From positions 7,597 through 71,596 of the forward strand of contig JAXHTJ010000001.1 of NCBI GenBank assembly GCA_034190245.1: a DNA stretch of 64,000 bases, read 5' to 3'. Origin of the DNA: Halobacteriota archaeon (GTDB taxonomy: Archaea; Halobacteriota; Syntropharchaeia; DAOWMC01). Position numbers and translations under genes: made by a program. Below the pieces are notes generated by a model that saw only the letters and a program-made list of their open reading frames with translations, had not been told where the DNA came from and searched no databases. Below are positions 3,015 through 48,855 of the stretch, one piece after another (the stretch's first letter is position 1; each line of letters starts with the position of its first letter).

Positions 3015-4790
3015 TCAGTCCATAAGCCTCTTGATCGAGTATAAACCGGCACCCATGATGAGCAGCACCAATGCCAAAACAATGAATATTGAGGTGTCCT
3101 TGCCACCACCGTCCCCATTCCAATCGTGCATAAAAACTTGCGTAAAGTACTCTGAGACATCCTGATTTTCAACTATAACACCCACTTCCCTGCTGTATGT
3201 TGGACTGTCCTTATTCCAGTTGATGCTCGATACCAGGGTCTTGTCTCCATCAACGATCACCCCTTTTGTGTGCACTTTATCCAGATCTAATTCACCATTT
3301 ATCAGTCTTCCCTCCAGATTGAGCCCCTCATCTTCTGCTATGCCGTTGACGTATGAGACCGTTTCGGTGTTGGAGGCCACATTGTACCAGCTACTGTCCA
3401 AGAGTATCTTCACCTCGCAGCCCCTTCTTGCCGCATCAATCGCCGATTCCAGATATAAATTTGGTTCATCATCCCACTCCTTATGGACGTAAAGCTGCTC
3501 GATGTAAACACTCTTCTTTGCGGAGTTCATCAATCCCAGGACAGTCTCGTTCAAAAGAGAGGTATCCGGGGCAATTACGGGCGTGACTGTAAAATCACCC
3601 GTTATCTCCCTTGATTCGAAGATGGGATCATATCTTCCTCCTTGAATCGTTATTTGTGGAATGTCCCTGTCAAATTCTTTGGCAGGTATAATGTCATCAC
3701 CCACCCAATCGTCATTAAAAAGTTCAGTAAAGTAGGATGTGACATCTGCATCCTCAATTGCGATACCCCAGCCTCTACTCCCGAATGTGCTATCAATCGG
3801 CACTCCGGTGTATTTGAAGTTCTCGGTGAGGATGAGTGTTGTCACGTTGTCGATGAGCATGTACTTTGCATGGATGAATCTGTATCTATCGGGCATTGTT
3901 TCGTTCCCACGCATGAAGGATACAGACCCATTGGCACCTACAATCTCGCTTGCAATGAAGAGTTCTTCATCCTCGATGCCTCCGATAGGCCCTCCTTCCA
4001 GCAAGACTCTAACACTGATGCCCCGTTTCGTGGCGTCGATTACGTGCTCCATGATCTTTAGATTGTCAAACTCGTATACGCATATATCAAGAGAGGACTT
4101 CGCAGCGTCTATCGCCCCTGTGACTTCTTTGTAACTGCTGTCAGGAGAGACAAAGACTCTCACGTCTCCATGGAAATCGAATCTCTCAACCGGGAACCGG
4201 GACTGCCCCAGATAATATATCCGCGACTCATCCCAATCACTCTTTGAATCGGTATCAACGACTCCATTTCTCTGAAGGATCTCGCCTTCGTGCGCCTTCC
4301 CTATGGTTGGACCGGACCAACCCTGCCCGATGTATTCGGAGTCTCCATAAATAACAACGTCGATCAAATTTCCATCGCTATCAAACAGTAGCAGTTCATC
4401 CCCGTCATTACTGAGGCGGATAGTACCTCCAGGCATCCGGGGGGTGTCTGGACTCGGGTCCGAAACGTACACAAAATCTGCAGTCTTTTTACTCTGCTCA
4501 CTGAATCGGAGGGCGTTCCTTGTGATATATATCGTCTTTTCTCCTTCGATAAAAGTGCCTTGGGGGAAGGATATGTTGGCTTCGATATCGCTGATTGCCC
4601 AGCCTGATATCTCGATCGAATAATTGGTTGGATTGCAGATCGCTATGTATTCGTCCAAGTCATTCTTGGTGTAGGTGTTCGGATAAAACTCGAATATTAT
4701 CGGATGATTAACTGAAGCAGAGGCCACTTGAAAAGACAACGGCAATAGCAGGAGAATGATTATAACTTGGGTAGAGTATCTTCCCTTCAA
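3015..4790 (-). CDS. Secreted phospholipase-D-superfamily protein with N-terminal lamin-tail-like (LTD) domain and C-terminal TM anchor
   Basis: Signal-peptide-like N-terminus (LLLLPLSFQVASA). Two HKD motifs (HAKYMLIDNVT; HTKGVIVDGDKTLVSSINWN). C-terminal hydrophobic tail IFIVLALVLLIMGAGLYSI. Confidence 0.65.
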   Translation of the reverse strand: MKGRYSTQVIIILLLLPLSFQVASASVNHPIIFEFYPNTYTKNDLDEYIAICNPTNYSIEISGWAISDIEANISFPQGTFIEGEKTIYITRNALRFSEQSKKTADFVYVSDPSPDTPRMPGGTIRLSNDGDELLLFDSDGNLIDVVIYGDSEYIGQGWSGPTIGKAHEGEILQRNGVVDTDSKSDWDESRIYYLGQSRFPVERFDFHGDVRVFVSPDSSYKEVTGAIDAAKSSLDICVYEFDNLKIMEHVIDATKRGISVRVLLEGGPIGGIEDEELFIASEIVGANGSVSFMRGNETMPDRYRFIHAKYMLIDNVTTLILTENFKYTGVPIDSTFGSRGWGIAIEDADVTSYFTELFNDDWVGDDIIPAKEFDRDIPQITIQGGRYDPIFESREITGDFTVTPVIAPDTSLLNETVLGLMNSAKKSVYIEQLYVHKEWDDEPNLYLESAIDAARRGCEVKILLDSSWYNVASNTETVSYVNGIAEDEGLNLEGRLINGELDLDKVHTKGVIVDGDKTLVSSINWNKDSPTYSREVGVIVENQDVSEYFTQVFMHDWNGDGGGKDTSIFIVLALVLLIMGAGLYSIKRLMD

Positions 4791-37563: not shown

Positions 37564-37999
37564 TAGGGAAGGGCTACCGCCCTTTCCAAACCTGTGTCCG
37601 CCTTCGGCAGGACTAATCGGGCTTTCGCCCGATGATTTATCTGGCCATTTTATAGGGATTGGAATTATTCTTAGCTAAACCCCTTTTAATGCATATAAAA
37701 CATCTCGCCGTAGATGAGATTAGTCCAGCATAAAACTGGAATGGTAATATTCGACATCTTAAAATTCAAAGTTTTTTCATTTGAGTTACGTCACACAATT
37801 GTGAATTTATTAAAAAAGGCTTTATTTTACTTCTTTAAAAAACTTCTTTGGGACATTTTTCTTCTTTTTTTATATTGGAGGGCACTCATTCATTTTTGAT
37901 GAAAATTTTGGTAGATTTCTACTATATGGTCTTCTTTTTACAAGTTCTCCGAACTTTTTTTCTTATTTTTAAGAATAAAGGTTTAATAATGTTTTATTT

Positions 38000-38565
38000 G
38001 GCTATCAAAAGCTTTATATAGGTTTAATCTCAATGTTAACGTTGTCATGATGAAAGCTTGCAGGATGACAGGAGAAGAACTCCGACATGACAGGCACACG
38101 GTGTCACTCTTAACAGATCACATGGTTATTACTCCAAAATATAGGGGTAAAATATTAACTGACGATGTTGCTATGGTTTGTGAAGGTCTTATCAGGAAGA
38201 CATGCAGGGAGATGGATATTGAGATAATTGATATGGCAATCAATACTGATCATGTTCATCTGTTTATAAAGTATCCGCCAAAGTATTCTGTTAGCTTTAT
38301 CGCAAAGAAGATCAAAGGCAGGACAAGCAGAATACTGAGGCAGCACTTCCCACATTTGAAAGAATGGTGTCCTGACCATTTATGGGCACCGGGTTGTTTT
38401 CATGGTTCAGTAGGCCATGGTTGGGAGTGGTGGAAAATTATATCTTAACTCAGGTTCATTCACCTAAACAAGGGAAAAGTATATAAAATGGCTGGACACC
38501 TCCAGCCTGAGAGGTGTCCGATTTTCAATCGGACTAAAGGGGTGTATAAGCACCCCTTGTTTTGA
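38000..38565 (+). mobile_element. IS200/IS605-family insertion sequence (tnpA only); ends approximate
   Basis: Y1/HUH transposase ORF followed by two subterminal hairpins (38495-38521 and 38538-38562). The left boundary is not resolved. Confidence 0.5.
38047..38448 (+). CDS. tnpA: IS200/IS605 family transposase TnpA (HUH Y1)
   Basis: 133 aa with an HVHLF (HUH) motif. The C-terminal …LWAPGCFHGSVG… matches the IS200 LWSPSYFxGSVG pattern. Confidence 0.8.
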   Translation: MMKACRMTGEELRHDRHTVSLLTDHMVITPKYRGKILTDDVAMVCEGLIRKTCREMDIEIIDMAINTDHVHLFIKYPPKYSVSFIAKKIKGRTSRILRQHFPHLKEWCPDHLWAPGCFHGSVGHGWEWWKIIS

Positions 38566-38684
38566 TTAACCTTTTATTTAAAAGGTTACTAACAAGCCTG
38601 GTACCTATAAGTACGGGGTATAGTGACTTAATACAGGATATTTTCATGTACTATAAAATGAGTATATGTATGGTTGTGTCTGTT

Positions 38685-40658
38685 ATGTTTGGAGATTCAA
38701 GATATGTTGTTAGATTAGCTATTATAATACTTCTGCTAACTCTTTTCATTGGTACAGCATCCGCTGAGATATGGTATGTTGATGATGATAGTGGTGCGGA
38801 TTTTACAAAGATACAGGATGCGATTGATGCTGCGGTTGCAGGCGATACGATTATTGTAAAAGATGGTACGTATCATGAGAATGTGGATGTGTATGAGCGT
38901 TTAATAATACGATCTGAGAATGGGTCTGTATCGACAACTGTTATTGCATCAAATCCTGAAGATCATGTTTTCGGAGTATTTGGAAATTATGTGAATATCA
39001 GTGGGTTTACGATAGAAGGGGCAACTGGATCATGGATAGCCGGGATTTATCTCAAGGTTGCGTATGACTGCAATATTTCGGGTAACATCGCATCGAACAA
39101 CAGCTACGGCATCTACCTAGATCGTTTTTCAGGTAACAACAGACTTGTGAGCAACATCGTGAGTGGAAACCACAACGGTATCCGCCTGTATTCTTCATAC
39201 AACAACACACTCACGGGCAATATGATGTTGGATAATACCCACAGTCTTGGTGTTTATAGTCCTAATCTTTATGATTATTATGGTTCCAGTTATGGCTCCA
39301 GTCTCCCTGACTACACTCAAAACATAGACAACACAAACAAAGTAAATGGAAAACCGGTCTATTACTTGGTTGATAAGCAAGATCAGGTAATATCTGACGA
39401 TGCTGGCTACGTGGGAGTTGTGAATTCCACAAACATTACAGTGAAAGATTTAACGTTAACAGGCAATCGTCAAGGAGTGCTTTTTGTTTACACAAATAAT
39501 TCAAAGATAGAGAATGTGAATGTATCGAACAACCACAACGGCATCTACCTAGAATCTTCAAGCAACAACACACTCACGGGCAACATCGTGAAGGGCAACA
39601 ACCACAACGGCATCTACCTAGAATCTTCAAGCAACAACACACTCACGGGCAACATCGCGAATTCGAACAACGGCGACGGCATCTACCTGTTTAAATCAAA
39701 AAACAACTCACTTGTGAACAACACCGCGAATTCGAACAATAACTACGGCATCCACCTGTGGAATTCAAGAAACAGTACACTTTTGGAAAACAATATGTCG
39801 GGGAATGGCTACAACCTTTATGTTTTAGGTTCAATTCTTTGTGATTATTATGGTTCCAGTTATGGTTCCATTCTTCTTGGCTACACTCAAAACATAGACA
39901 ACACAAACAAAGTAAATGGAAAACAGGTCTATTACTTGGTTGATAAGCAAGATCAGGTAATACCTGACGATGCTGGCTATGTTGGAGTTGTGAATTCCAC
40001 AAACATTATAGTGAAAAATTTAACGTTAACAGGCAATCGTCAAGGAGTGCTTTTTGTTTACACAAATAATTCAAAGATAGAGAATGTGAATGTATCGAAC
40101 AACCACAACGGCATCTACCTAGAATCTTCGAGCAACAACACACTCATGAACAACACCGCGAAGGGCAACAACTGCGGCATCATGCTGCGGTATTCAATCA
40201 ACAACACAATAGAGGGCAACAATGCAACGAACAACAACTACGGCATCTATCTGGAAAATTCAAGAAACAACACAATCTACAACAACTACTTCAACAACAC
40301 AAAAAATGCCTTTGATATCAAAAACAACATCTGGAACATCACAAAAACAGCAGGAACAAATATAATCGGTGGGCCTTACTTAGGTGGAAATTACTGGTCG
40401 TCAGACTATAAAGGAGCTGATACTGATGGAGACGGCTTGGGTGATACATTGTTCCCGCACAACTCTTCAGGATTAATAACGAACTCCGGAGATTATCACC
40501 CGCTGATGAAGACGTGGATACCAACTCCAACACCTACTCCAACCCCAACATCAACTTCAACGCCATCCACACCCGATGAGGAACAACCCGGATTCGAAGC
40601 AATATTCGCAATCATTGGACTTTTGGTGATAGCATATCTTGTGAGAAGAAGAAAATAA
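38685..40658 (+). CDS. Secreted right-handed parallel beta-helix repeat protein (NosD/pectate-lyase-like) with PGF-CTERM archaeosortase sorting signal
   Basis: Signal peptide MFGDSRYVVRLAIIILLLTLFIGTASA. Many NxxHNGIYLxxSxNNTLTGN PbH1-like repeats. C-terminus PTPTPTPTPTSTSTPSTPDEEQPGFEAIFAIIGLLVIAYLVRRRK. Confidence 0.7.
   Translation: MFGDSRYVVRLAIIILLLTLFIGTASAEIWYVDDDSGADFTKIQDAIDAAVAGDTIIVKDGTYHENVDVYERLIIRSENGSVSTTVIASNPEDHVFGVFGNYVNISGFTIEGATGSWIAGIYLKVAYDCNISGNIASNNSYGIYLDRFSGNNRLVSNIVSGNHNGIRLYSSYNNTLTGNMMLDNTHSLGVYSPNLYDYYGSSYGSSLPDYTQNIDNTNKVNGKPVYYLVDKQDQVISDDAGYVGVVNSTNITVKDLTLTGNRQGVLFVYTNNSKIENVNVSNNHNGIYLESSSNNTLTGNIVKGNNHNGIYLESSSNNTLTGNIANSNNGDGIYLFKSKNNSLVNNTANSNNNYGIHLWNSRNSTLLENNMSGNGYNLYVLGSILCDYYGSSYGSILLGYTQNIDNTNKVNGKQVYYLVDKQDQVIPDDAGYVGVVNSTNIIVKNLTLTGNRQGVLFVYTNNSKIENVNVSNNHNGIYLESSSNNTLMNNTAKGNNCGIMLRYSINNTIEGNNATNNNYGIYLENSRNNTIYNNYFNNTKNAFDIKNNIWNITKTAGTNIIGGPYLGGNYWSSDYKGADTDGDGLGDTLFPHNSSGLITNSGDYHPLMKTWIPTPTPTPTPTSTSTPSTPDEEQPGFEAIFAIIGLLVIAYLVRRRK
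39272..40147 (+). repeat. Intragenic direct duplication of about 305 bp at about 95% identity (39272-39577 vs 39842-40147), plus a perfect 57-bp tandem duplication (39531-39587 / 39600-39656)
   Basis: Direct comparison of the two stretches; the copies differ by only a handful of substitutions. Confidence 0.7.
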
Positions 40659-40754
40659 AAACAAATACCCAACCAACCGCCCCGTGGATGCACCCGAATT
40701 CATTCGGGTGTGGCGTGGATGGGGCTTAAACACTTTCACCACACTTACTCAACC

Positions 40755-40762
40755 TTTATATG
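40755..40762 (+). promoter_or_regulatory. TATA-box-like element (tttatatg) about 40 bp upstream of the Panacea-domain gene
   Basis: AT-rich octamer at the appropriate distance for an archaeal promoter. Confidence 0.2.
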
Positions 40763-40800
40763 TAATTCATACCTACATATTATTAGAAACTGTGATATAT

Positions 40801-41403
40801 ATGATTCATTTTAAAGGAATTGATAATAAAAAATTAAGGGATGTTATTGTGTATTTTACCTTTAAAACGAATTATTTGACCTTAATACGTCTTATAAAAT
40901 TGGTTTATATTGCAGAAATCTATTCTATAAAAAAATTTGGCAGAAGATTGACGGAGGTAGACTTTCTCAACTATCACTATGGCCCTTGGAGTTCTGAGAT
41001 TAACTCTATAGGAGAGATAATATCTGGTGATGATATCTTAATCGAGTTTGATAGAACTCCTCAAGGTCATGATGCTTCTTTCTTTAAACCGAATGTAGAT
41101 GAACCTGCTATCAACCTTTCTGAAGAAGATATATCTTTACTAGATGATGTCATAAATGAATGGGGATTCAAAAAGACTGAGGAAATAATCACATTTGTAA
41201 AATCTACTTCTTCGTATAAGAATTCTGGATTTGGAGAATTGATAAATTTCGATGAATATATCGATGAGTGTAGATCTGCGCTGGTTGAGAGTGATGATAA
41301 AATTCTTTCTGGTGTCCATGAGGCAATAGAAGAATACAAAAAAGGCCTTGGAAAAACCTTTGAAACAAAAGATGAGCTCTTAAGACATCTTCAAAGTTTG
41401 TAG
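40801..41403 (+). CDS. Panacea (DUF4065)-domain protein, putative PanA-type antitoxin
   Basis: …TNYLTLIRLIKLVYIAEIYSIKKFGRRLTEVDFLNYHYGPWSSEI… matches the Panacea/SocA core (T.LKLqKLlYyA….G.pl….F.a…GP). The ATG at 40801 is preferred over the track's upstream extension. Confidence 0.55.
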   Translation: MIHFKGIDNKKLRDVIVYFTFKTNYLTLIRLIKLVYIAEIYSIKKFGRRLTEVDFLNYHYGPWSSEINSIGEIISGDDILIEFDRTPQGHDASFFKPNVDEPAINLSEEDISLLDDVINEWGFKKTEEIITFVKSTSSYKNSGFGELINFDEYIDECRSALVESDDKILSGVHEAIEEYKKGLGKTFETKDELLRHLQSL

Positions 41404-41411
41404 ATGGTTTT

Positions 41412-41669
41412 ATGGGCTTTACATATCGTACAGAACCCCGATTCGATAAGAATTTTAAGAAACTGACTAAGAAAGACAAGGATTTGAAAGAAAGAGTACT
41501 AAGTAAAATCGAAGAGATATGTACAAATCCAACGATAGGAAAGCCTTTGAGAAATGAACTTAGAGGCATGCGAAGAGTTCATATTGGTTCTTATGTGATT
41601 ATTTATGCAATCATTGGAAATGAGATTATCTTTATGAACTTTGATCATCATGATTTTGTATATAATTGA
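41412..41669 (+). CDS. RelE/ParE-superfamily type II toxin
   Basis: 85 aa: …FDKNFKKLTKKDKDLKERVLSKIEEICTNPTIGKPLRNELRGMRRVHIGSYVIIYAI…FDHHDFVY. This follows the classic RelE/ParE layout, 8 nt after the Panacea gene stop. Confidence 0.7.
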   Translation: MGFTYRTEPRFDKNFKKLTKKDKDLKERVLSKIEEICTNPTIGKPLRNELRGMRRVHIGSYVIIYAIIGNEIIFMNFDHHDFVYN

Positions 41670-41842
41670 TGATAAAAACAATCACCCAACCTACGGCTCA
41701 CTTCGTTCACCCAAATTCCGCCTTAGGTGGAGCCTCGCATGCCCTCCAAACGTTATTTAATTCTCGCTTTCAAACTTGGATAGAGAGATTCTGTCAAGTA
41801 AGTTTTTTGGTGTGAAAAAGTCAAGCTAAGGATGGTGTTAAT

Positions 41843-43222
41843 ATGCAGGTAGATGAGATCATAGATAGCCTCGTTACAATAGTAGGAAGAGAAAATGTTC
41901 TTTCTGGCGATGAGATCCCCGAAGAGTATGGACGCGACGAGGCACTCACTCTGAAGCCCTGCTTACCGGAGGTAGTGGTTAAACCAGAAAGCGCAGAAGA
42001 GGTATCAAAGATATTGAGTCTTGCTAATTCCTGGAAGATTCCGGTAACACCAAGAGGTGCAGGAACCGGTCTTTCCGGTGGTTGTGTGCCCCTCTATTCA
42101 GGCATACTTCTCTCCCTCGAACGAATGAATAAAATCATTGAGATCGATGAGGAAAATAGTGTGGCTGTTATTGAAACAGGTGTTGTTTTGGCAGATTTGT
42201 ACAAAGCTGTCGAAGCACGTGGACTATACTATCCGATCTATCCGGGAGAGGTGAGTGCCACAATCGGAGGAAATGTCGCTACGAATGCGGGCGGGATGCG
42301 GGCGGTGAGGTACGGTGTGACAAGACATTTTGTTCTGGGATTGGAAGCAGTATTGCCCACCGGGGAGATCATAAGCACCGGTGGAAAATATGTGAAAGTT
42401 TCAACCGGTTACGACCTAACCCAGCTAATCTGCGGCTCAGAAGGCACCCTAGCAGTGGTAACAAGGATAATACTAAAACTTCTCCCGCGTCCCAGAGCTA
42501 AGGCAACTCTTCTTGTTCCTTTCAAGGACGTGAGTGATGCAATCGGAACTGTTCCAATCATACTCAAATCCGGGGTGATCCCGGTAACAATCGAATTTTT
42601 GGAAAAATTTGGGCTAATAGGCATGGAGAGCTATACAAAGATGAAAGTTCCCATTGGAAAAGAAGCACGCAGTAAGGCAAGAGCCTATCTGATCATAGTC
42701 CTGGAAGAGAAGAGTTCCGAAGCGGCTTTCAAGGATGCCGAACTGATCTCCGATATCTGTATGGAGCATGGAGCAATAGACGTATTCATACCCTCCACCG
42801 AAAAAGATGGCCGGGAGCTTCTGGAGCTGAGGGAAAAGGCCTTTTATGCCACAAGGGATGCGGGTGCTTCAGATTTGATCGATGTAGTGGTCCCCCGTGG
42901 CGAGATACCGAAATTTTTGGAGAATATACGTGAGATATCTGCAAAATACTCAACAGTGATAGCTGGTGCAGGGCACGCCGGAGATGGAAATTTGCACATG
43001 GGAATAATGGTGCGGGATTCCGAGAAGAAGTCAAAGATACTCGAGGATATCTATCGAGCCGGAAGAGATCTTGGGGGGACAATTTCTGCTGAGCATGGTA
43101 TCGGTTGTGAGAAGAGAAGGTATCTACTAAAGATGGAAGACGAGGTAAAAATTGAGCTTATGAGAAGGATAAAAGAAGCCTTCGATCCAAATAAAATACT
43201 GAACCCTGGAAAGATTTTTTAG
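41843..43222 (+). CDS. FAD-linked oxidase (GlcD / D-lactate dehydrogenase family)
   Basis: N-terminal PCMH-type FAD-binding domain (PRGAGTGLSGG) and C-terminal FAD-oxidase domain. Confidence 0.7.
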   Translation: MQVDEIIDSLVTIVGRENVLSGDEIPEEYGRDEALTLKPCLPEVVVKPESAEEVSKILSLANSWKIPVTPRGAGTGLSGGCVPLYSGILLSLERMNKIIEIDEENSVAVIETGVVLADLYKAVEARGLYYPIYPGEVSATIGGNVATNAGGMRAVRYGVTRHFVLGLEAVLPTGEIISTGGKYVKVSTGYDLTQLICGSEGTLAVVTRIILKLLPRPRAKATLLVPFKDVSDAIGTVPIILKSGVIPVTIEFLEKFGLIGMESYTKMKVPIGKEARSKARAYLIIVLEEKSSEAAFKDAELISDICMEHGAIDVFIPSTEKDGRELLELREKAFYATRDAGASDLIDVVVPRGEIPKFLENIREISAKYSTVIAGAGHAGDGNLHMGIMVRDSEKKSKILEDIYRAGRDLGGTISAEHGIGCEKRRYLLKMEDEVKIELMRRIKEAFDPNKILNPGKIF

Positions 43223-47474: not shown

Positions 47475-48401
47475 ATGTTTACAAAAAGAGAGATCATTTC
47501 GATGAGAGATTTCTCGCGAGAAGAGATTAATTACGTATTGAAAAGAGCCGAAGAGCTAGAGGTTTATGCTCTTGGGAAGAGGTCTGATCTTTTGGGCGGT
47601 AAAATAATGGCAAATCTCTTCTTTGAGCCTTCAACAAGGACACGCCTCTCTTTTGAGACTGCTATGAAACGTTTGGGTGGCGAGGTCTTAAATTTAGGAT
47701 CGGAAGAAGCGAGTTCTATCGTAAAAGGTGAGACACTTGCAGATACCGTGCGTGTCATCTCCAACTACTGCGATGTGCTTGTGCTCAGACACCCAAAACA
47801 GGGTGCGGCAAGGATGGCTGCTGAATACTCCTCGGTTCCGGTCATAAATGCTGGAGATGGTGCAGGGCATCATCCAACGCAAACACTTATTGACCTGTAT
47901 ACGATAAGCAGGGAGAGCCATCTGGATGGGATCAACATTGCGTTGGTGGGTGATTTAAAGTACGGGAGGACAGTCCATTCATTAGCATACGCTTTAGCCT
48001 TGTATGACACAAATATCTGGCTGGTCTCTCCTGATCAATTGCGCATGCCGGACAGCATTAAAAGCGACTTAAAGAGTCTCGGAATCGAAGTTATTGAGAC
48101 GAGCGACATAGCGGACGTGATCGATGAAGTAGATGTTTTGTATGTAACAAGAATTCAGAAGGAGAGGTTCCCGGATCCTGCGGAGTATCGTAAGGTTGCA
48201 GATTCATATCGCATCTCTATAGACCTGCTCAAAGAAGCAAAGGAAAATTTGATAATTATGCATCCACTTCCGAGGGTGACCGAAATTGATGTCGAAGTCG
48301 ATTCCTCGAAATATGCCAAGTATTTCAAACAGACCTTCTATGGCGTACCGATAAGAATGGCATTGTTGACTCTGCTTCTGGAGGGAAGAGATGAACAATA
48401 G
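47475..48401 (+). CDS. pyrB: Aspartate carbamoyltransferase catalytic subunit
   Basis: STRTR and HPTQ motifs. Its end overlaps pyrI. Confidence 0.9.
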
Positions 48402-48855
48402 GGAGCTCAGGATAGAGGCAATTCGTAGTGGAACCGTCATTGACCACATCATGGCAGGCCATGCATTGCAGGTCTTGAATATCCTGGGAATCGCCGGGAG
48501 ATCTGACGCTGTTGTATCGGTAGCAATGAATGTTCCTAGTGAAAGGGTGGGTACAAAGGACATCGTAAAAGTTGAAGAGCGGGAGTTGATAACCGATGAG
48601 GTTAACAAGATAGCGTTGATCGCCCCCAATGCCACGATAAATATCATCCGCGATTACGAGGTCATAGAAAAGAATGTTGTGCACCTGCCGGATCTGATTG
48701 AAGGCATCATAAGCTGCCCAAATCCAGATTGTATCTCGAATACCAGAGAACCAATTCTATCGAGCTTCATTGTGCATAAACGAGAACCACTCCAATTCCG
48801 TTGTTACTACTGTGAGGGGCTTGTAGAGAATGTAGCTGATTACCTTCTTTTGTAG
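48391..48855 (+). CDS. pyrI: Aspartate carbamoyltransferase regulatory subunit
   Basis: C-terminal Zn domain CPNPDCIS…CYYC. Confidence 0.9.

Follow-up and report, generated by a model that had tools for sequence, protein, structure and literature searches.

Panacea domains, which define the PanA antitoxins of the PanAT toxin-antitoxin (TA) systems, have been reported in 27 bacterial and 3 archaeal phyla, where no fewer than 88 types of toxin domain, ParE among them, are found as partners (Kurata et al. 2022, PMC8832971). In Dataset S1 of that study there are PanA from Methanosphaera and Methanobrevibacter (Methanobacteriales), encoded antitoxin first, with a toxin of cluster pT15/T14, for which the HHpred matches are HigB-2, YoeB/ParE, and RelE. 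These pairs are predictions, marked 'NoTest', and the sole Methanosarcinales entry in the dataset has a different partner (PMC8832971). Through truncation and SUMO fusion it has been found that the Phd-C, ZBD or PAD1 module neutralises the toxin, rather than the Panacea domain, and fusion of Panacea with single-domain neutralisers, such as archaeal RelB, has been proposed (Ernits et al. 2023, PMC10440598). A 64,000 nucleotide (nt) stretch of DNA from a Halobacteriota archaeon (assembly GCA_034190245.1, contig JAXHTJ010000001.1, 7,597-71,596, forward strand), hereafter the window, carries a panA gene followed closely by a gene for a toxin of the RelE/ParE fold.

The PanAT kind, and within it the archaeal sub-kind in which PanA is paired with a RelE/ParE-fold toxin, is already catalogued. 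The window cassette shares with the archaeal PanA:pT15/T14 pairs the same Panacea antitoxin, a two-gene operon with the antitoxin first, a toxin of the RelE/HigB/YoeB/ParE fold, an archaeal host, and a patchy, mobile distribution. The catalogued pairs are from Methanobacteriales, whereas the window cassette is from Methanosarcinales-type relatives of Candidatus (Ca.) Argoarchaeum. What is added here is a new PanAT family in Argoarchaeum-related archaea, together with evidence of a recruited mini-antitoxin as the putative neutralising element. This extends PanAT to the Methanosarcinales related to Argoarchaeum and to the anaerobic methanotrophic archaea (ANME), in which TA biology is essentially unexplored. 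The initial annotation of the window had described such a pairing as not characterised. That stands with regard to experiment, as no experimentally characterised archaeal PanA-RelE pair was found in the literature searched, but not as a claim of novelty, since archaeal PanA:RelE-like pairs had already been predicted (PMC8832971). With a probability of roughly 60%, the locus is a chromosomal, horizontally mobile type II PanAT cassette, in which a RelE-like toxin is paired with a two-module PanA that neutralises it through a C-terminal tail.

The panA-toxin pair

The panA gene extends from the ATG at 40801 to the TAG at 41401-41403 and encodes 200 amino acids (aa). The toxin gene, of 85 aa, extends from the ATG at 41412 to the TGA at 41667-41669. 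Both are on the + strand and 8 nt separate them, as the initial annotation had it, and the Panacea and RelE/ParE assignments that it proposed for 40801-41403 and 41412-41669 were both returned by profile searches. The Pfam model SocA_Panacea (PF13274) matches the first open reading frame (ORF) at 45.4 bits, against a gathering score of 25.7 (E 1.8e-11). This match covers PanA residues 31-135 (40891-41205, + strand) and model positions 1-108 of 113, marking the extent of the Panacea (DUF4065/SocA-like) core that is the defining domain of PanAT systems. The same domain is present in 12 out of 12 PanA homologues, which are 61-98% identical. An exact-sequence look-up of PanA returned no entry.

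The second ORF matches PF05016 (ParE_toxin) at 46.8 bits (gathering score 23; E 4.7e-12) and NCBIfam TIGR02385 (RelE_StbE) at 38.5 bits (cut-off 27.9). Matches to YafQ, YoeB, and ParE-like models are below threshold, with 51.9 bits for YafQ (TIGR00053, cut-off 87.25) and 24.9 bits for the ParE-specific profile PF15781 (ParE-like_toxin), which is under its 28-bit cut-off and does not place the toxin in the ParE subgroup. The AlphaFold2 model of the toxin has two helices followed by three long strands, with a predicted local distance difference test score (pLDDT) of 87. Foldseek comparison of this model returns RelE, YafQ, YoeB, and ParE structures at probability 1.0 and template modelling (TM) scores of 0.65-0.84. 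The top matches are RelE2, RelE1, and RelK of M. tuberculosis, RelE of T. thermophilus, HP0894 of H. pylori, YafQ, and YoeB, with ParE toxins somewhat lower. The archaeal RelE toxins of P. horikoshii aRelB-aRelE (1wmi) and M. jannaschii RelBE (3bpq), which like that of the window are small RelE-fold proteins, are also matched. Profile and fold together place the protein in the RelE/ParE superfamily.

By profile search the toxin family contains 2820 proteins, most of them archaeal and annotated in their sources as RelE/StbE or YafQ, with the signature ...KRVHIG.[FY]V[LI]I[FY]...FDHHDxxY. In a sample of 38 family sequences, H80 and D81 occur throughout, and conservation of H79 and of Y84 is 90% or more; K44 and R55 are invariant only within the six closest relatives. 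All six residues are retained in the window. The C-terminal D-H-H-D-x-x-Y aligns with the DHRADIY end of M. tuberculosis RelE2.

PanA belongs to a narrow family, a search of 5.8 billion proteins having found 12 clusters at 61-98% identity. There are three panA loci among 185,579 species-representative genomes, these being in Ca. Argoarchaeum ethanivorans, a 'Methanobacteriota' metagenome-assembled genome (MAG) and a Methanosarcinales MAG, and seven further loci in metagenome contigs. None was found in the viral contigs searched. The loci and contigs of relatives that were compared with the window are given L numbers, and the related proteins P numbers. Antitoxin-first order with a gap of 8-12 nt is found in the window, the three Argoarchaeum loci, L005 (twice), L007, L015, L016, L026, and the tight same-strand pairing is kept in at least six lineages with differing genomic contexts, in which the neighbours of the cassette include Fic, thermosome genes, a radical-SAM gene with PK_C, and PPDK. 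The pair is therefore conserved as a unit, and with the profile matches this supports the initial proposal of an archaeal PanAT-type module whose toxin has the RelE/ParE fold. The pairing is far more than chance, because it recurs in many assemblies and both genes are under purifying selection, with a ratio of nonsynonymous to synonymous substitution rates (dN/dS) of 0.18 for panA and 0.18 for the toxin gene between the window and L005. In the closest comparison the ratio for the toxin is 0.56-0.73, from few substitutions.

A 965-bp block (40725-41688, + strand), comprising the promoter region, panA, the toxin gene, and the start of a 3' element, is 94% identical to the Ca. Argoarchaeum ethanivorans loci L001, L002, and L006, with sharp edges. 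It has a GC content of 31-35%, against 42-48% in the flanks. The sharply bounded identity and low GC content indicate a small mobile cassette.

In several relatives the toxin gene is broken beside an intact panA. It is truncated after residue 39 in L003 (5613-5729) and L014 (4613-4729), and frameshifted in three independent assemblies, L004 (3800-4062), L017, and L018, and in L008 (3311-3563). L026, which has the same context as L004, has an intact toxin of 89 aa. The loss of the toxin before PanA in three lineages is the order of decay expected if the downstream product is harmful.

The PanA tail and stand-alone mini-ORFs

Beyond the Pfam match, PanA has an extension of 60-65 residues (136-200), which is strongly conserved from approximately residue 141 (41221) and has the consensus ...GELINFDEYI...AIEEYKKGLGKTFETKDELLRHLQSL. 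Within it, residues 160-200 (ALVESDDKILSGVHEAIEEYKKGLGKTFETKDELLRHLQSL; 41278-41400, + strand) form the putative toxin-neutralising module, delimited by homology to the mini-ORFs described below. This C-terminal tail outside the Panacea core is the most informative feature of the locus and was missed in the initial annotation. Searching 1.84 billion representative proteins with the tail alone gave five matches: the PanA family itself, a 103-aa fragment, the 52-aa protein P0020, and two long repetitive proteins. The latter two have weak matches over multiple stretches and were judged spurious. The tail was not found in any PanA outside this family in the same library. P0020 is essentially the tail alone, matched at E 7.7e-6 for the whole library. 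P0020 has no toxin on the same strand and adjoins a convergent RelB-like/ParE-like pair.

Two toxins that are not linked to PanA, P0027 (on 24 contigs) and P0035, are 56% and 53% identical to the window toxin, respectively. An unannotated 54-aa ORF is located 3-6 nt upstream of each. A profile made from the PanA tails alone scores these 54-aa ORFs at 29-32 bits in hmmsearch (E approximately 1e-7 to 1e-8), the next best of the 3024 ORFs searched being at 9.3 bits, which is the noise ceiling. In hhalign, PanA residues 160-200 align with mini-ORF residues 14-54 at a probability of 98% (E 2.4e-13). A mini-ORF/toxin pair in L029, held out of profile training, scores 42 bits. The mini-ORFs form a family of 52-54 aa, with the motif ...AGLGKxFxxxxEFxxHLxxL, directly upstream of RelE/StbE-like toxins. 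Mini-antitoxin-like ORFs are present in L021 (2333-2497), L024 (2333-2497), L025 (623-787), L029 (1330-1494 and 2933-3097), and L009 (151-309, which is P0020). In L024 and L029 the mini-ORF/toxin pairs are just 3' of a type IIG (MmeI/Eco57I-like) restriction-modification gene, with up to three pairs in a row in L029. These restriction-modification genes end approximately 57 nt before the mini-ORFs, leaving no room for a degraded Panacea domain upstream.

A 66-aa ORF upstream of the Methanocellales toxin P0039 has a similar C-terminal motif by eye and is not detected by the tail profile. In the case of P0017, a toxin 41% identical to that of the window, the contig ends upstream, so the partner context is uninformative. 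Matches of the tail and mini-ORFs to zinc fingers and designed repeats were considered spurious.

In view of the homology of its tail to the stand-alone mini-ORFs, the best description of PanA is that of a fusion between a Panacea domain and a putative mini-antitoxin, with either fusion or loss as the possible direction of change. Outside the Panacea core it has an extra conserved module, with relatives among the mini-ORFs of the same toxin class, which is the architecture of Ernits et al. In PanA(Phd-C):Doc of C. doosanense, Panacea is likewise joined to a linear module resembling a canonical antitoxin, which is C-terminal there as it is here. PAD1-Panacea:toxSAS and ZBD-HTH-Panacea:MqsR also have a Panacea core with a separate small antitoxin-like module. 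Unlike those PanAs, the module in the window is related to an archaeal mini-antitoxin of 52-54 aa and the toxin is RelE-like, with the neutralising role proposed by homology. The aRelB-type partners of archaeal RelE and the mini-ORF partners of the sister toxins are both tiny proteins without a DNA-binding domain, and the archaeal RelB type has been cited as a single-domain neutraliser (Ernits et al. 2023, PMC10440598). The aRelB protein stands alone, whereas the mini-antitoxin in the window is fused to a Panacea domain, and no solved antitoxin chain is detectably similar in sequence to the tail or the mini-ORFs.

The core and tail of PanA differ in their substitutions between the window and Argoarchaeum. 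In the tail (41221-41400) there are 5 nonsynonymous and 7 synonymous changes, a dN/dS of approximately 0.16-0.19 (p = 0.004 against neutrality). In the Panacea core (40801-41220) there are 24-25 nonsynonymous and 5-6 synonymous changes, giving a neutral-looking dN/dS of approximately 1.1-1.2. The difference between the two has p = 0.02-0.05 by Fisher's test, on small counts. This contrast fits a conserved toxin-binding tail on an accessory or sensor domain that is evolving more freely or rapidly.

The cassette is a new instance of the published principle of Panacea with a neutraliser. It would strike a specialist as neatly confirmatory and not as surprising, and it leaves the general view of TA systems unchanged. 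For the hypothesis of Ernits et al., in which hyperpromiscuous antitoxins arise by fusion of a Panacea domain to a minimal, single-domain neutraliser, the cassette is a natural case. The fused form, in PanA, and the free form, in the 52-54-aa ORFs, both adjoin toxins that are 53-56% identical, so that direct tests of the hypothesis are possible. The comparison also flags a family of putative mini-antitoxins that had no annotation.

Proposed mechanism and alternatives

The RelE/StbE-YafQ-like 85-aa product is predicted to be toxic, and would most likely act as a ribosome-dependent mRNA endonuclease, with the C-terminal His-His-Asp...Tyr cluster, Arg55, and Lys44 as the candidate catalytic or RNA-binding residues. 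Such an activity is more likely than a ParE-like one. The PanA tail (residues approximately 141-200) would bind the toxin directly, as single-domain archaeal RelB-type antitoxins do, wrapping the RelE-like protein and blocking its ribosome- or RNA-binding surface. Neutralisation is likely to be the task of the tail, because of its homology to the free-standing 52-54-aa ORFs with which the closest toxins are paired. In that case the Panacea domain would have an accessory part, either stabilising the tail or acting as a sensor, and would not be the neutraliser. By likeness to the multidomain PanAs, a type II mechanism is most likely.

Several observations weigh against this mechanism. In Pfam, NCBIfam, and the PDB, the tail and mini-ORFs matched neither a known antitoxin family nor a solved chain, so their antitoxin role is argued from position and homology. 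No recognisable DNA-binding domain was found in PanA by Pfam and NCBIfam profile searches, and the structural model of the PanA monomer, at a pLDDT of 38, is too poor for a fold search. In the toxin, the arginine of the RelE/YoeB Y-R-L-V-Y motif (Arg61 in RelE, Arg65 in YoeB) is Val62, as it is in the aligned stretch of Caulobacter ParE1, and His57 is variable across the family. A ParE-like, non-nuclease activity is therefore kept as a minority alternative. In the metagenomic contig L020 (112-694), panA is frameshifted beside an intact toxin gene, which may be an assembly error or may mean that the toxin is tolerable.

It is possible, if unlikely, that the Panacea globule itself neutralises the toxin, as in stand-alone Panacea antitoxins such as PanA of B. 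choladocola, and that the tail serves for dimerisation, autoregulatory DNA binding or as a degradation tag. In one system a Panacea core has been shown to neutralise directly (PMC10440598), and the window PanA has no other candidate for operator binding and a tail that resembles no known antitoxin family. The closest sister toxins, however, have no upstream partners other than tail-only proteins of 52-54 aa, suggesting that a partner needs no more than the tail module, and over short distances no part of PanA is as constrained as the tail. Doubt attaches more strongly to the toxin being a ParE-type DNA gyrase inhibitor instead of an mRNA interferase. The name of its best Pfam family, ParE_toxin, and the alignment of its RRxxxGS[YH]V[IV][IF]Y stretch with Caulobacter ParE1, with valine in place of RelE Arg61, would favour this, but PF05016 spans both RelE and ParE, and it is the RelE/StbE model that passes its cut-off while the ParE-like PF15781 fails. 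The nearest structures are the RelE, YafQ, and YoeB nucleases, and the conserved C-terminal D-H-H-D-x-x-Y aligns with the end of RelE2. To our knowledge, the ParE toxins of solved structure usually lack such a C-terminal motif.

The toxin pseudogenes beside intact panA genes in several lineages, and the toxin dN/dS of 0.56-0.73 over the few substitutions of the closest comparison, would be in keeping with a decaying or domesticated remnant, in which PanA is an anti-addiction or orphan antitoxin and the toxin of this locus is inactive. This is improbable for the window, where both frames are intact and K44, R55, H79, H80, D81, and Y84 are present, and where the long-range dN/dS is 0.18. Least probable by far is a type VI mechanism as in SocAB of Caulobacter, in which PanA would be a proteolytic adaptor that hands the toxin to a protease. 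SocAB shares the Panacea-family antitoxin with the window and has a different toxin fold; the window toxin has the RelE fold, is not SocB-like, and is expected to be bound directly. ClpXP is a protease of bacteria and is not known from archaea, and with a toxin that is not SocB-like an adaptor of this type is unlikely in an archaeon. The Pfam family does bear the name of SocA, a proteolytic adaptor in Caulobacter, but the other PanAs that have been tested all form complexes with their toxins (PMC8832971).

Flanking elements, mobility and host

The conserved region upstream of panA (40725-40800, + strand) is a putative archaeal promoter and leader, to judge from its sequence, with a TATA-like TTTATAT at 40755-40761 and a Shine-Dalgarno-like GTGAT at 40792-40796. 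The block TTCACC.C.CTTACTCAAC.TTTAT within it is invariant over eight loci, in cassettes that are 61-98% related. A 239-aa reading of panA from the GTG at 40684 is unlikely, because most homologues are 200-204 aa in length and the extension would cross the conserved TATA-like promoter stretch. An Rfam search of 40400-42000 returned no match, a search of the whole window for tRNA genes found none, and PADLOC assigned no defence system.

The IS200-type element and surface-protein gene that had been noted upstream of the pair are both present. The Y1 transposase gene (tnpA; 38047-38448; PF01797, 102 bits) is 2.3 kb upstream of the cassette. It is followed at 38562-40658 by a gene for a NosD/beta-helix protein with a PGF-CTERM archaeal sorting signal, the true start of which is probably downstream of the TTG at 38562. 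The surface-protein gene contains many beta-helix repeat units of 66-69 nt, and an internal duplication of 300 nt (39172-39471 and 39742-40041; 84% identity) at a spacing of 570 bp. Between Sir2 and tnpA, 37600-38040 is very AT-rich, at approximately 30% GC, and the tnpA region lies between the arms of an imperfect inverted repeat (37646-37671 and 38635-38660), which may be the boundaries of the insertion sequence.

Two flanking elements of approximately 75 nt each, diverged from one another, are located at the ends of the cassette. Copy 1 (40655-40731, + strand) ends in ...GGGGCTTAA at the left edge of the cassette and contains a perfect hairpin with a 9-bp stem, CACCCGAAT-TC-ATTCGGGTG, at 40691-40710; it may be a recombination or attachment site, a terminator of the upstream gene or a remnant. 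Copy 2, a degenerate 3' element (41672-41751, + strand), was recognised from the 47-nt direct repeat D7, which is 74% identical to 40655-40701. With nhmmer, the 3' element is found after the toxin gene in L005 (976-1034 and 3413-3471) and L007 (4914-4964) at E approximately 1e-6, while the window copy is weak, at E approximately 0.1; there are weaker matches downstream of the Argoarchaeum toxin gene. A reading of the hairpin elements as integron attC sites was rejected by eye, from the ends alone and with no search for an integrase, because these ends depart from the RYYYAAC/GTTRRRY core sites and one is not the reverse complement of the other.

A right-end-like motif, GTACC..AAGTACGGGGTATAGTGACTTAA, is present 3' of the IS200-type tnpA in the window (38596-38632) and in L006. 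In L001 (90-135), L003 (4877-4930), and L014 the same motif directly abuts the cassette, at the junction ...GACTTAA|ACAC.... At exactly this junction the window and L006 have different cargo segments of 1.5-2.1 kb, carrying the surface-protein gene in the window (segment 38633-40724) and a 334-aa ORF in L006, where the positions concerned in this arrangement are approximately 2400-2440 and 3890-3930. Both segments end in a hairpin followed by CTTAA, and the hairpin sequences differ. This suggests hairpin-guided insertion, either IS200/IS605-like or cassette-array-like, at a candidate insertion hot-spot. No pair of left and right ends bounding the cassette as an IS200/IS605-borne unit was defined. 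A look-up of the FAD oxidase neighbour for an empty site found only this same locus and no empty site.

More speculatively, and decidedly doubtfully, the cassette could be a virus-triggered switch, in which the fast-evolving Panacea domain senses an invader and frees the toxin held by the tail, and which spreads by hairpin and CTTAA insertion near IS200-type elements among anaerobic alkane-oxidising archaea. If true, this would be a cassette-array-like mobility mechanism that is new for archaeal TA modules.

The host is an archaeon of the methane/ethane-cycling type. The genes around the cassette block are archaeal housekeeping genes, encoding deoxyhypusine synthase, Sir2, an FAD-linked oxidase, a TP_methylase-family protein, and RNase P p30. 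The TP_methylase-family gene occupies a position like that of diphthine synthase, and with deoxyhypusine synthase and RNase P p30 it indicates a host that is archaeal in character.

L005 is a contig of 4446 bp in which a PPDK gene is located between perfect inverted repeats of 1048 bp (1-1048 and 3399-4446). Each arm carries a complete PanA-toxin cassette and 3' element, and the contig may be a genuine composite or may be an artefact of its assembly. Over the pyrB/pyrI region (48087-48848) the window has 75% DNA identity to L003 (4-762), from which the L003 organism is a relative of the window host. In L003 the cassette is on the other side of pyrB, which points to an independent insertion or a rearrangement.

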